A DNA stretch of 64,000 nucleotides, taken from positions 4,884 through 68,883 of IMG/VR virus record IMGVR_UViG_3300012206_000001. The stretch is one strand, 5' to 3'. This document shows positions 36,586 through 37,764 of the stretch, in pieces. The position numbers and the translations under genes were made by a program. The DNA is from a virus. The notes beneath the pieces were generated by a model that saw only the letters and a list, made by a program, of their open reading frames with translations, ran no database searches and was not told the origin of the DNA. Position 1 is the first letter of the stretch. The number at the start of each line of letters is the position of its first letter.

Positions 36586-37666
36586 CTACCTCCGTGGTTG
36601 TTTGCCGAGCAGCGACAGCAGCCGCTTCGCCGCGTTGGTGAACGTCCGGTCCGCGATGGCCGCGCGGGCCTTCAGTGCAGCTTCCGCGCGTTCATCTGGA
36701 TGGGCGAGCGCCCAGCGGATCTGGCCGGATGCCTCTTCCGGGGTGGTGAAGGCGGGCAGCATGGGGAAGAGCTCGTCCGATTCGGGCCTGCTGTCGCGGG
36801 CGAACCACAGCCCGCACGCCGCCTGCTCGATCTCCCGCGGCCCGCACGCGTATGCCTGCGCGTCCCAGTCCGGCTCCGCCTCGCGCCGGTAGAAGTTGAT
36901 CCCGCACGCCGCACGCCGGTACAGGGCGGCCGTCTCGGCGTTGTCCACGCACACGTCCGCGTCGGCGTCGCGGGACAGCAGGTGCCCGCGCAGCGGCGAG
37001 TCCGCGGCCAGGCGCCCCCAGAATCCGCCGAGCGCGACCCGCAGCCCGGCCAGGTCCATCTGCTCGAGGAACGCGACCCGGCTGGGGAACCCGGTGCCGA
37101 CGAACGCCAGGTCGTACTCCGGCTCCGTCCCCGCAGGCGCCGGGTAGTGCACCGACGGGCGGTAGGAATGCGGCATGTACTCCGCCACCGGGCTGGCCGC
37201 CCGGTACGCCTCAATGCCAGCCGGGTCGTTGACCAGGCTGATATCGGCGAACTTCGCCATCTGAAGCTGCTGCCCGGCCTGGTACGGCGCCTCGCTGAAC
37301 AGCATCACGATCGTGTGGCCGCGGGACCGCATGACCTCCAGCACGGACGCGGGGGTGAAGAACGCGGACACGCACAGGACGACGCTTGGCCACCATCTAT
37401 AGCACGCGCCGAGCAGCAGGTCGCCTGTGGCGAGCCCGACGGCCTGCTCGGTGGTGAACGCCTTGCGGGCCGGCCGGCGCCCTTCGCTGTCGGGTGCGGC
37501 CCCGGTCTCGGGCATGAGCGCCGAGTCGAAGACCTGCAGCCGCGCGTCGAGATTGTATTCCATGACCTCTTCGCCGAGGCCGCGCAGCGCTTCTACCCAT
37601 CCGACATGCATATCGGCGACACTGAAGTTGGGCTAAAGGCCCTGGGTGGATAACCAGCCAGCGCAT
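36586..37666 (-). CDS. CgeB-like GT-B glycosyltransferase; N-terminal MRWLVIHPGP in a different frame
   Basis: YDLAFVGTGFPSR, GINFYR, GPREIEQAACG; main frame is open from 37632. Confidence 0.8.
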
Positions 37667-37764
37667 AAAGACATCACCTCCTCACGGTAAAATGGGGGGA
37701 GGTGAGCGGTCCGGCCGCGCGAGCCAACGCAACGGCCGGACCTGACCGCATCGGAGGTGCGGCT

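Follow-up and report, generated by a model that had tools for sequence, protein, structure and literature searches.

How is a protein made from a gene whose coding frame is broken ten codons after its start? A predicted glycosyltransferase gene on the minus strand of a 64,000-nt stretch of viral DNA (the window) raises this question, since seven bases led by the rare leucine codon TTA stand between its first ten codons and the remainder of its frame. A first-pass annotation, made from the window alone, proposed that ribosomes halted at UUA bypass these seven bases between two proline codons. We ask here whether the gap is real, how widely it recurs, what happens to the gene around it and which explanation accounts for it best.

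Anatomy of the interrupted start

The minus strand was re-read and carries the start as first annotated. A Shine-Dalgarno (SD) region, GAGGAGGTGAT (37673..37683, core GGAGG at 37681-37677), can be read directly in the sequence ahead of the live start. Segment 1 (37637..37666) consists of ATG (37666-37664) and nine codons, CGC TGG CTG GTT ATC CAC CCA GGG CCT, which encode MRWLVIHPGP and end at the take-off CCT (37639-37637). The coding gap (37630..37636) comprises TTA (37636-37634), a spacer G (37633) and the landing CCC (37632-37630). Segment 2 (36586..37629) begins with the resume codon AAC (37629-37627), directly after the landing codon, and includes an ATG at 37611; in this +1 frame (CCC AAC TTC AGT...) 348 codons are open up to the stop at 36586-36588. 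The 0 frame stays open for 79 further codons past TTA. A plain +1 slip at the take-off CCT meets TAG (37635-37633), as had been pointed out.

The gap and the split frame are confirmed as real. Public contigs from four runs in four studies span 37454-38000 with 0 differences and 0 gaps, at word depths of 5-12; two of these runs may be where the window DNA comes from, and the other two carry no such flag. All have GCCC rather than GCC, the base count on which the first-pass annotation had asked for a check, and the spacer base lies outside any homopolymer. The seven public runs matched to the window include no RNA run.

Recurrence in other phages

Among 119 other listed homologs, 104 have the N-terminus, and 103 of these 104 read PGP-x-[FW]SV without an indel, so the seven bases of the window are extra relative to the family. 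The N-terminus that a hop would produce closely resembles that of homolog P0003.

When the viral collection was scanned for CCN-NNNN-CCN at the take-off codon, 32 stretches came up; 15 are glycosyltransferase 5′ ends, each with TTA. With the seven inserted bases left free, the same collection yielded 19 stretches, 16 of them glycosyltransferase 5′ ends. TTA is the first 0-frame codon of the insert in 16/16, with Pro codons on both flanks in 15; the remaining insert sits one codon downstream (CAT TTAG CGC). In a metagenome scan, glycosyltransferase 5′ ends made up 15 of 18 stretches. After de-replication, CCN-TTA-N-CCN stands at the same codon in 17 distinct loci, from soil phages that have diverged; conserved Pro-TTA-N-Pro gaps in homologs, put forward earlier as a check, are thus present, and this recurrence excludes a chance origin. 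Every one of the 17 has an extended SD of the type GGRGGTGRT before the start. The spacer may be G, A, C or U, and the +1-frame triplet is a stop in the 14 loci whose spacer is G or A.

Isolate phages (50,697 records) gave neither a DNA match nor a protein match to the glycosyltransferase. For prophages in named genomes, the general pattern found no glycosyltransferase among the first 120 matches listed, and the TTA-specific pattern gave three matches, all chance. A protein-based scan of named genomes found two loci, one in an Actinomycetota MAG and one in a Chloroflexia MAG.

The gene around the gap

Segment 2 matches the Pfam family PF13524 (Glyco_trans_1_2, CgeB-like) with 41.6 bits against a cut-off of 25, and is up to 80% identical to full-length homologs; the glycosyltransferase matched no PHROG family. 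The AF2 model of the 80%-identical homolog P0003, which is not the window's own protein, has a pLDDT of 92.3 and a GT-B fold of two Rossmann domains. The structures it resembles most are those of GT4-type enzymes (Foldseek probability 1.00, TM about 0.6), and residues 2-7 form beta-strand 1 of the N-terminal Rossmann-like domain. We read the gene product as a GT-B glycosyltransferase belonging to the neck/tail module of the phage. The PF13524 match and the modelled fold link it to GT4-type GT-B enzymes such as MshA, PimA, PimB′ and sucrose-phosphate synthase, although the phage protein family shares only 10-15% sequence identity with them. The enzyme is probably dispensable to the phage. If it acts on the virion, glycosylation there could be gated by the supply of tRNA-Leu(UAA), as first suggested.

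Gene callers begin the protein at ATG 37611, a start that the first-pass annotation had weighed against bypass, and the product is filed as 341 residues lacking strand 1 (P0002). But no SD precedes this ATG, and a protein begun there would lack strand 1 and the loop, as well as the opening turn of helix 1.

Insert-bearing genes are intact and under purifying selection. The downstream frame is complete (337-353 codons) in all 14 loci of one set, and none of 16 evaluable insert-bearing loci has a premature stop, their frames being either full length or still open where the contig stops. dN/dS is 0.15-0.50 between insert-bearing pairs and 0.36 between the window and an insert-free relative. The first ten residues are kept through synonymous change in the 17 loci (five codons are used for Arg2 and four for Leu4). 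Twelve of the insert-bearing genes belong to one deep clade that has retained the insert.

Codon statistics at the gap

TTA is invariant at the site in the 17 loci, yet it accounts for 1 of 541 Leu codons in the bodies of these genes, in keeping with its earlier description as rare. High-GC3 ORFs of the window hold 7 TTA in 11,950 codons (0.59 per 1000), five in ORFs overlapped by longer ones on the opposite strand and two upstream of listed starts. From codon usage only, we assume that tRNA-Leu(UAA) is scarce in the host. ARAGORN found no tRNA genes within the 64-kb window, in a search for a phage-encoded suppressor or quadruplet-reading tRNA.

The codons used for take-off and landing read CCT/CCC or CCT/CCT at 10 loci, CCG/CCG at five, CCG/CCA at one and CCA/CCA at one. 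All 17 pairs are wobble-compatible (U with C/U; G/A with G/A), and none mixes Y with R; the reading of both codons by one tRNA-Pro, claimed for CCT/CCC in the window, thus extends to every locus. Insert-bearing loci and insert-free controls came from different pattern searches, the controls being the matches listed (at least 108) and the sample not random. In tests that the relatedness of loci inflates, take-off CCC occurs in 0/17 insert-bearing loci against 36/108 listed controls (p = 0.003), take-off CCT in 10/17 against 15/108 (p = 1e-4), and GGG as the Gly codon before take-off in 16/17 against 26/108 (p = 4e-8). The Y/R class of take-off and landing changes about four times on the glycosyltransferase tree, and codon matching thus reflects few independent events: independent Y/R pairs number two on well-supported branches and four on all branches, and all are concordant, counts at which a sign test cannot reach significance. 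Codon matching could also be in part a mutational footprint, left by a 2-3 nt duplication at the birth of the insert.

A GGGC/GCCC mini-hairpin suggested for the window does not hold up across the loci, where the spacer base varies. No conserved hairpin was found at the gap: the RNAalifold consensus is −3.2 kcal/mol with almost no covariation, and the gap of the window folds with z = 0.23.

Related inserts in the family

The same site also occurs with an in-frame insert of six bases. This form, GGG CCT TTA CCC (12/12 hits), is found in five distinct lineages with full ORFs of 354-358 codons, and keeps TTA, GGG and CCT/CCC while adjacent synonymous sites vary. It encodes HPGP-LP-DFSV in the five lineages; homolog P0065 has HPGPLPSWSV.

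An HMM search of the 108 listed 'plain' loci revealed seven frame breaks in six loci. The 0-frame codon at these breaks is always rare, TTA in six and AGA in one. Matched codons flank the inserts GAT TTAG GAC (L271), CTT AGAC CTC (L248, with the rare AGA where others have TTA) and TAT T TAC (L290), which gives Asp/Asp, Leu/Leu and Tyr/Tyr as take-off/landing pairs at other sites of the family; L224 has the in-frame GAT TTA GAC. The landing triplet is poorly matched in AAT TTAC GAC (L250), AAT TTAGGGGGC TTT (L306) and GAA TTA GAC (L280). Across the family, rare-codon-led inserts are 1-11 nt long and have been seen at four sites. TTA comes first in 23/23 of the 7-nt and other frame-breaking inserts, the AGA of L248 being counted apart. 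A window-wide scan for further matched-codon gaps (TTA, AGA, ATA, CTA, AGG) was discarded as noisy, its GC3 filter having missed the known site.

How the gap may be crossed

The explanation that we consider probable is a UUA-stalled +7 hop of peptidyl-tRNA-Pro over the gap. Translation would start at ATG 37666 behind the strong SD and bring CCU (Pro10) into the P site and UUA into the A site. The tRNA for UUA is presumably scarce or absent in a high-GC host, and the ribosome would stall; peptidyl-tRNA-Pro would release CCU, to which a GGG anticodon pairs by G:U wobble, the mRNA would slide by 7 nt, and the same tRNA would re-pair with CCC. Decoding would resume at AAC to give MRWLVIHPGP-NFSVADMH..., collinear with the family and with IHPGPNFSVADMH as the junction peptide. 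Ribosomes that decode UUA normally would make an 89-residue dead-end peptide. The 7-nt bypass between Pro codons that was first proposed is backed by the recurrence of the gap, the intact frames and the selection on them, the rarity of TTA, the matching of the codons and a published precedent (below).

A +1 frameshift after normal decoding of UUA would also join the two segments. The spacer would be skipped and CCC AAC read, giving ...IHPGPLPNFSV..., that is, MRWLVIHPGP-LP-NFSV..., whose beta1-alpha1 loop is longer by two residues. The same Leu-Pro insertion is encoded by the 6-nt form (CCT TTA CCC) in all of its hits and lineages, and likewise by P0065, so it may be tolerated, which keeps this reading alive. 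The G-rich triplet (GGG, 16/17) moreover ends 3 nt before UUA, matching the spacing in prfB, where 3 nt separate the internal SD from the P-site codon. But once UUA is in the P site, the A site would hold GCC, ACC, UCC or CCC in the 0 frame, all of them common, and nothing would slow that frame; tRNA-Leu(UAA) re-pairs poorly on UAN; and the loop has no indel in 103/104 homologs. Nor does such a shift explain the 17/17 wobble-matched Pro pairs, the absence of CCC at take-off, the Asp/Asp, Leu/Leu and Tyr/Tyr pairs elsewhere, or why the in-frame form should keep the rarest codon. A prfB-type shift at the take-off codon itself calls for an open +1 frame there, and a CCU-U slip puts UAG in the A site. 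We regard a +1 shift as unlikely.

It is improbable that the gene is simply broken or truncated, the seven bases being the scar of an endonuclease-cassette insertion, with the insert spread by a selfish cassette and either no full-length enzyme or a short protein from ATG 37611. The choice of 37611 by gene callers would fit, as would the shortened N-termini called in 15/119 listed homologs, the probable dispensability of the enzyme, the company that the insert keeps with selfish endonuclease genes and an unexplained break in the neighbouring major tail gene (both below). Against this, the gene does not decay: downstream frames are intact in 16 loci at the dN/dS given above, the twelve-gene clade retains the insert, and the ten upstream codons and the strong SD are conserved in the old frame. 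The start at 37611, without SD, costs a strand of the fold, and random scars would not always start with TTA as 23/23 do (L248 apart). An assembly or sequencing artefact, in which one extra base hides a true in-frame CCT TTA CCC, or GCC, is scarcely credible. In its favour, indel errors do occur in assemblies of metagenomes, natural examples of the in-frame 6-nt form are known, and a C run 1.3 kb off has a 1-nt break; but the contigs of four runs agree at the site, the spacer is not in a homopolymer, and 17 distinct loci from different samples carry the 7-nt form with all four spacer bases.

Comparison with known ribosomal hops

The precedent named earlier, in terL of phage phiHau3, is borne out in print, 7-nt gaps included. 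UUA-led gaps are described in 3/100 actinophage terminase genes, of 7 nt in two prophages (StrepC.1 and Streptomyces catenulae) and of 10 nt in phiHau3 g6/g7/g8; the junction peptide was detected by mass spectrometry, scarcity of the UUA tRNA in a high-GC actinomycete is the proposed trigger, and an mRNA stem-loop and an internal SD are the proposed stimulators in phiHau3 (Antonov et al. 2023, PMC10732093). The words 'homing', 'HNH' and 'glycosyl' do not occur in the main text of that article (PMC10732093). In both systems a short UUA-led block breaks a conserved ORF and shifts its frame, and skipping it restores collinearity; phiHau3 has an SD-like G run upstream, to which GGG directly 5′ of the take-off codon may correspond here. 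They differ in that the terminase is essential and the glycosyltransferase accessory, and in that 17 natural loci, against 3/100 terminase genes, give codon-level statistics. A search for conserved RNA structure flanking the glycosyltransferase gaps found none, and these gaps come with an in-frame 6-nt form, variants of 1-11 nt, one AGA-led case and a clear link to homing endonucleases. The UUA bypass of phiHau3 was reportedly described by Smith and colleagues in 2013.

Hungry-codon hops and frameshifts in Escherichia coli, said to have been reported by Weiss et al. in 1987, by Kane et al. in 1992 (a two-codon hop) and by Lindsley and Gallant in 1993, share with the proposed bypass a rare or starved codon at which the A site stays empty and a P-site peptidyl-tRNA that re-pairs at a nearby matching triplet. 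Landing in frame would correspond to the 6-nt form and landing out of frame to the 7-nt form. Those events belong to laboratory or recombinant expression and are of low efficiency, whereas here the arrangement is conserved in natural genes.

The evidence published for UUA bypassing comes from three terminase genes and from experiments that are difficult, and to it the glycosyltransferase family adds dozens of natural variants of one site. They amount to a natural mutational series for the rules of short-range hopping, with 7- and 6-nt forms, four spacers and three matched Pro classes, avoidance of CCC at take-off, GGG upstream in 16/17 loci, and Asp, Leu and Tyr pairs at sister sites. Since the phage can probably do without the gene, altering it should not be lethal. 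Such genes are cut short or divided by gene callers, so annotation pipelines for actinophages need a rule for TTA-led gaps.

Homing endonuclease genes beside the gap

A second 5′ end of the glycosyltransferase lies upstream of the live one on the same strand (38466..38507): GGGAGTGTAA, then ATG...CAC CCC GGG CCG AAC, with homology ending after codon 11. Its coding part (38498-38466) reads ATG CGC TGG CTG CTG ATC CAC CCC GGG CCG AAC, and it is the sole second match in the phage's own genome (90% identity). The first-pass annotation used this copy, with its HPGPN, for comparison; the copy is there, and skipping 7 nt in the live gene does restore HPGP-NFSV, but it is more than a comparison: it is probably the relic of an endonuclease-cassette insertion, which alters the account of how the gap arose. 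Its sequence and TAATG start overlap match the native junction of the insert-free L006, L009 and L011. Relics were seen in the window and in L005, where the relic is without its start.

Between the relic and the live 5′ end, on the plus strand, lies a NUMOD4-HNH homing-endonuclease gene (37702..38289; Pfam NUMOD4 47.3 bits, HNH_3 33.2 bits; PHROG 1492 HNH endonuclease, E = 5.7e-46). Beyond the relic is a 99-codon ORF on the plus strand (38512..38811) with no Pfam or PHROG family, whose homolog (E = 6e-39) stands directly upstream of the insert-bearing glycosyltransferase of L216. It is followed by a minus-strand gene of the structural module (38790..39263; 157 aa; PHROG 22863, unknown function), which in most relatives abuts the glycosyltransferase start, its stop lying mostly within a few bases of it in insert-free ones. 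Directly downstream of the glycosyltransferase is the major tail protein gene (36152..36582, minus strand; PHROG 10528 for its N-terminal part). It has a 1-nt (−1) frame break at the C run 36325-36328, 1.3 kb from the gap, and is contiguous in 12 of the 13 relatives in which both motifs were found; with this unexplained break in the same window, not every break in the assembly need have a meaning.

Inserts and endonucleases are associated, in a non-random sample of loci whose relatedness inflates the association. Endonuclease domains lie directly upstream in 5/13 evaluable insert-bearing loci and in 6/73 listed controls, and one HNH_3 family stands beside the 7-nt form alone (3/13 vs 0/73 listed controls). 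A rare-codon-led insert within the first ~125 codons is present in 10/11 endonuclease-adjacent loci and in 11-12/75 without an endonuclease. The endonucleases beside insert-bearing genes belong to three families: HNH_3, NUMOD4-HNH and MUG113. Six other loci (L224, L268, L280, L284, L290 and L306) have homologs of the window's NUMOD4-HNH gene, placed and oriented alike. In L268, L280, L284, L290 and L306 this family adjoins genes with site 1 uninterrupted, so the gap of the window may not protect against that particular enzyme. The gap is kept in L027/L221, L041/L210 and L211, where the glycosyltransferase start follows the upstream structural gene with no other gene in between.

We put at about even the chance that homing-endonuclease cassettes invading the gene's 5′ end include the gap or have selected for it. 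A cassette of endonuclease, SD and new gapped 5′ end would be copied into an uninterrupted gene, leaving the old 5′ end as a relic, and the gap would break the conserved endonuclease target without altering the protein; for T4 MobA, the 50-nt gap plays this part. The gap might in this way have a role in immunity to the endonuclease. An intron with the relic as exon 1 and the gene body as exon 2 was rejected: the start is missing from the relic of L005, the gap persists in loci free of endonuclease, and a strong SD and a full 5′ copy precede the gap in all loci. The bases at the gap presumably do not fit group I or II splice-site rules either. The SD sequence GGAGGTGAT was also discarded as a sign of shared cassette homology; it precedes some uninterrupted genes as well, and we take it to be the extended anti-SD complement.

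The T4 gene 60/MobA element, reportedly described by Bonocora and colleagues in 2011, is the closest parallel in outline. There, too, an untranslated gap in a conserved gene adjoins an HNH endonuclease gene, and a stop or hungry codon follows take-off. Described for the MobA system are cases of endonuclease lost with the gap kept, swaps of endonuclease family, and take-off and landing codons matched as U/C or G/A (Manning and Atkins, bioRxiv 10.1101/2022.08.31.505936); all three have their likeness here. The 50-nt gap of T4 comes with a stem-loop at take-off, a signal in the nascent peptide and an internal SD. Here the gap has 7 nt, a take-off stem-loop is absent, and a nascent-peptide signal is not evident, with just ten residues made by then; the glycosyltransferase stays a single polypeptide, the hosts are presumably soil bacteria of high GC content and not enterobacteria, and the window's endonuclease family also stands beside uninterrupted copies of the site. 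By analogy, the arrangement would work like gene 60/MobA in outline; it is not a homolog of the T4 cassette. Given the tie to endonucleases, this arrangement, long seen as a curiosity, may have a small-scale counterpart that is widespread among high-GC phages.

More tentatively, rare-codon-led micro-gaps (mostly UUA, some AGA; 1-11 nt) could form a general system of 'translational introns' in soil actinophages. Several endonuclease families would invade conserved genes, and the insert in the copies that persist would destroy the nuclease target in the DNA and be erased at the ribosome by re-pairing of the peptidyl-tRNA, the efficiency at each gap tying expression to the supply of a rare tRNA. 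Inserts that kill the target but vanish at the ribosome would allow one gene family to gather several gaps at different sites. The plain and 6-nt forms of the site also meet in a near-identical pair of loci, L246 (plain) and L359 (6-nt form), which differ by a patch of changes around the site and about 190 extra upstream bases.

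Gene and gap in the window

The 64-kb window belongs to a virus record of 68.9 kb that has direct terminal repeats and ∼70% G+C. Its glycosyltransferase gene (Pfam PF13524) sits within the structural module, downstream of a gene of unknown function (38790-39263, 157 residues) and directly before the major tail protein gene, which starts at 36582; positions 39837-40733 encode a head-tail adaptor. Read on the minus strand, ATG 37666 opens ten codons for MRWLVIHPGP behind an extended Shine-Dalgarno sequence (SD, 37683-37673); a 7-nt gap, TTA G CCC (37636-37630, minus), follows directly. 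From CCC the +1 frame is open for 348 codons to a stop at 36586, while the 0 frame past TTA gives an 89-residue ORF. The first-pass annotation had read these bases correctly, including the TAG that a +1 slip at CCT would meet. Contigs from four runs, each of a different study, span the site with zero differences; two of these runs are possible sources of the window DNA and two are not flagged as such.

Among 8,000 candidates scored, 1,406 relatives were found at E ≤ 0.001. Excluding the window's own product, 119 homologs were listed; the N-terminus was called shorter in 15 and is present in 104, of which 103 carry PGP-x-[FW]SV with no indel, so the seven bases were inserted where the gene start is highly conserved. 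The one exception, protein P0065, has HPGP-LP-SWSV.

Bypass, in which a ribosome stalled at UUA hops 7 nt from Pro to Pro codon as the first-pass annotation proposed, is probably the best explanation of the gap, judging from sequence comparison.

Recurrence of the gap

The first relative found (L005, 57% protein identity) is arranged like the window, with a relic HPGP and an HNH_3 gene, then an SD ahead of ATG...CCG TTAG CCG AAC. Scanning the viral collection for CCN-NNNN-CCN at codon 10 gave 32 stretches; 15 are glycosyltransferase starts, and each of these has TTA. With the seven bases left free there were 19 stretches; all 16 glycosyltransferase starts among them were TTA-led, and 15 had Pro/Pro flanks. 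The sixteenth, locus L378, has its insert one codon further downstream (CAT TTAG CGC). Glycosyltransferase starts made up 15 of 18 stretches from metagenome contigs, and no glycosyltransferase appeared among the matches listed from representative prokaryote genomes; one relative is located in an Actinomycetota MAG. De-replication left 17 distinct loci with CCN-TTA-N-CCN, the homolog pattern that bypass had been expected to leave; their spacer is most often G (12 loci), with A and C at two loci each and U at one.

Scanning for HPGP-x-P-x-[FW]SV returned nothing but an in-frame 6-nt form, GGG CCT TTA CCC (12 of 12 stretches; five distinct proteins of 354-358 codons). On its sequence, this form shows that a Leu-Pro insertion here is at least encoded in nature.

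Maintenance of the gene

The frames downstream of the gap are complete (337-353 codons) in all 14 loci examined, and a search of 16 loci found no premature stop. Pairwise dN/dS (NG86) between insert-bearing genes ranges from 0.15 (L032/L044) to 0.50, and is 0.36 between the window and an insert-free relative, with dS near saturation in distant pairs. The ten upstream codons keep their protein while the codons vary, Arg2 using five and Leu4 four. The alternative start at ATG 37611, chosen by gene callers, has no SD. The AF2 model of homolog P0003 (80% identical to the window protein; pLDDT 92.3) has a GT-B fold closest to GT4-type enzymes, with strand 1 at residues 2-7, a loop at 8-14 and helix 1 at 15-27; by this model, starting at 37611 would delete strand 1 together with the loop and helix 1's first turn.

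Codon usage and the proposed hop

TTA is invariant at the gap, but the bodies of insert-bearing genes use it for one of their 541 Leu codons, bearing out its supposed rarity. The window's high-GC3 ORFs have seven TTA in 11,950 codons, five where a longer ORF overlaps on the opposite strand and two upstream of listed starts. The codon pairs for take-off and landing are CCT with CCC or CCT at 10 of the 17 loci, CCG/CCG at five, CCG/CCA at one and CCA/CCA at one. None of the 17 mixes pyrimidine and purine classes, as expected if one tRNA-Pro reads both. Compared with 108 insert-free controls among the matches listed, insert-bearing genes lack take-off CCC (0/17 versus 36/108, p = 0.003) and favour take-off CCT (10/17 versus 15/108, p = 1e-4), GGG as the preceding Gly codon (16/17 versus 26/108, p = 4e-8) and CCA at Pro8 (10/17 versus 7/108, p = 1e-6). 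With pairing that is weak (G:U) at take-off and stronger at landing, these two codons would fit a mechanism in which tRNA-Pro(GGG) lets go and re-pairs. Codon matching might also stem in part from the way inserts arise. Phylogenetically independent switches of codon class on the tree number two on supported branches and four in all, too few for a test, though all are concordant.

The GGGC/GCCC mini-hairpin suggested earlier fared less well: no conserved RNA structure was found around the gap across loci (consensus energy -3.2 kcal/mol), and the window's own fold there is no better than shuffles.

Relic, endonucleases and mobility

The interval from the 157-residue gene to the live start contains a 99-codon ORF (38512-38811, plus strand), a relic of the uninterrupted 5′ end (38498-38466, minus; MRWLLIHPGPN, the upstream HPGPN copy already noticed) and a NUMOD4-HNH endonuclease gene (37702-38289, plus). 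Because the relic keeps a native TAATG junction in front, and in insert-free relatives the stop of the upstream gene usually abuts the glycosyltransferase start, the window looks like an uninterrupted gene with a block copied in at about codon 11, the block apparently comprising the endonuclease gene, the SD and a new 5′ end bearing the gap. The 99-codon ORF, of no known family, has a counterpart (E = 6e-39) in insert-bearing locus L216, in the same place and divergent from the glycosyltransferase start.

Among the matches listed, 5 of 13 evaluable 7-nt loci have an endonuclease domain directly upstream, versus 6 of 73 controls, and one HNH_3 family adjoins the 7-nt form only (3/13 versus 0/73). 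The window's NUMOD4-HNH family also adjoins the glycosyltransferase of L224 and five loci uninterrupted at codon 10 but with TTA-led inserts elsewhere. Rare-codon-led inserts occur in 10 of 11 endonuclease-adjacent loci versus 11-12 of 75 (among the matches listed; Fisher p ∼1e-6), the insert-bearing and control sets coming from different pattern searches and the relatives not being independent. At L023 the HNH_3 gene has an Endonuclease VII-family gene (858-1274, plus) immediately upstream, so that two tandem nuclease genes precede the gapped start. Homolog cluster P0042 is called as a 560-residue glycosyltransferase and HNH_3 fusion, which suggests that an endonuclease gene abuts the glycosyltransferase 3′ end in some phages.

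Two FastTree trees were built. In the tree of 135 proteins, a single deep, supported clade takes in 12 of 16 insert-bearing genes, and the L023/L216 pair, L005 and the window fall among insert-free genes. In that of 85 locus-derived proteins, one clade of 42 members contains every 7-nt and 6-nt form along with 22 plain genes, requiring at least nine switches. Plain L246 and 6-nt L359 share ∼92% DNA identity over the body, with dense changes from the start to ∼35 nt beyond the site and ∼190 extra upstream bases in L359; this difference has the look of a conversion tract.

Relation to known systems

The short UUA-linked bypass that the first-pass annotation cited for a phage terminase is in print: according to the main text of PMC10732093, three of 100 actinophage terminase genes have UUA-led 7- or 10-nt gaps; it also reports full-length product in Streptomyces and, by mass spectrometry, the junction peptide in E. 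coli with UAA replacing UUA. That main text lacks the words 'glycosyl', 'homing' and 'HNH'; relative to it, the glycosyltransferase family, with its unusually rich natural variation, and the endonuclease link are new. A full-text literature search returned no paper connecting bypassing with a phage glycosyltransferase. The endonuclease link parallels the T4 gene 60 gap, described in the preprint text (bioRxiv 10.1101/2022.08.31.505936) as part of the mobile MobA element, with matched U/C or G/A codons, swaps of endonuclease family and cases where the endonuclease is lost and the gap kept.

Other inserts and frame breaks

A three-frame profile scan found frame breaks in 6 of the 108 loci uninterrupted at codon 10 (among the matches listed), at glycosyltransferase codons ∼38-45 and ∼123. 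These are GAT TTAG GAC (L271, 7 extra nt, Asp/Asp); CTT AGAC CTC (L248, 7 nt, Leu/Leu, rare AGA replacing TTA); TAT T TAC (L290, 4 nt, Tyr/Tyr) and, in the same gene, CTT ... TTT (11 nt); CTT TT AAC (L284, 2 nt); AAT TTAC GAC (L250, 4 nt, poorly matched); and CCT T TAT (L268, 1 nt, creating CCT TTA). A rare 0-frame codon begins every break found, a pattern that random damage would not produce in genomes of ∼58-69% G+C. In-frame TTA-led inserts relative to sister loci occur in L224, L280, L284, L293 and L306; landing would pair in some only through a middle G:U (GAT to GGC, CAT to CGC) and in L306 not at all. In all, the rare-codon-led inserts of these family members measure 1, 2, 4, 6, 7, 9 or 11 nt and fall at three further sites, SVHD|V, YNL(N/D)|DRL and SECP|YQD.

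Elsewhere in the window, opposite-strand genes stand between structural genes at 39293-39859 (plus; HNH_3, related in motif to the family beside 7-nt gaps) and 40791-41399 (plus; no family match), so endonuclease-type inserts stud the structural module. At 35258-36152 (plus, opposite strand), flanked by the major tail gene and the tail-module gene that comes next, an Ltp-type gene for a host-surface lipoprotein (PF07553, two repeats) and an ORF of 82 codons look like a moron, possibly for superinfection exclusion. The major tail gene (36152-36582, minus) has a 1-nt frame break at 36325-36328, after ...AALDG(I P), with no rare codon involved: ATC CCC GCA AC needs a -1 step at the four-C run to reach the relatives' RNFYLYPN. 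The break might be due to a sequencing error in the homopolymer, to a private mutation or to slippage by -1.
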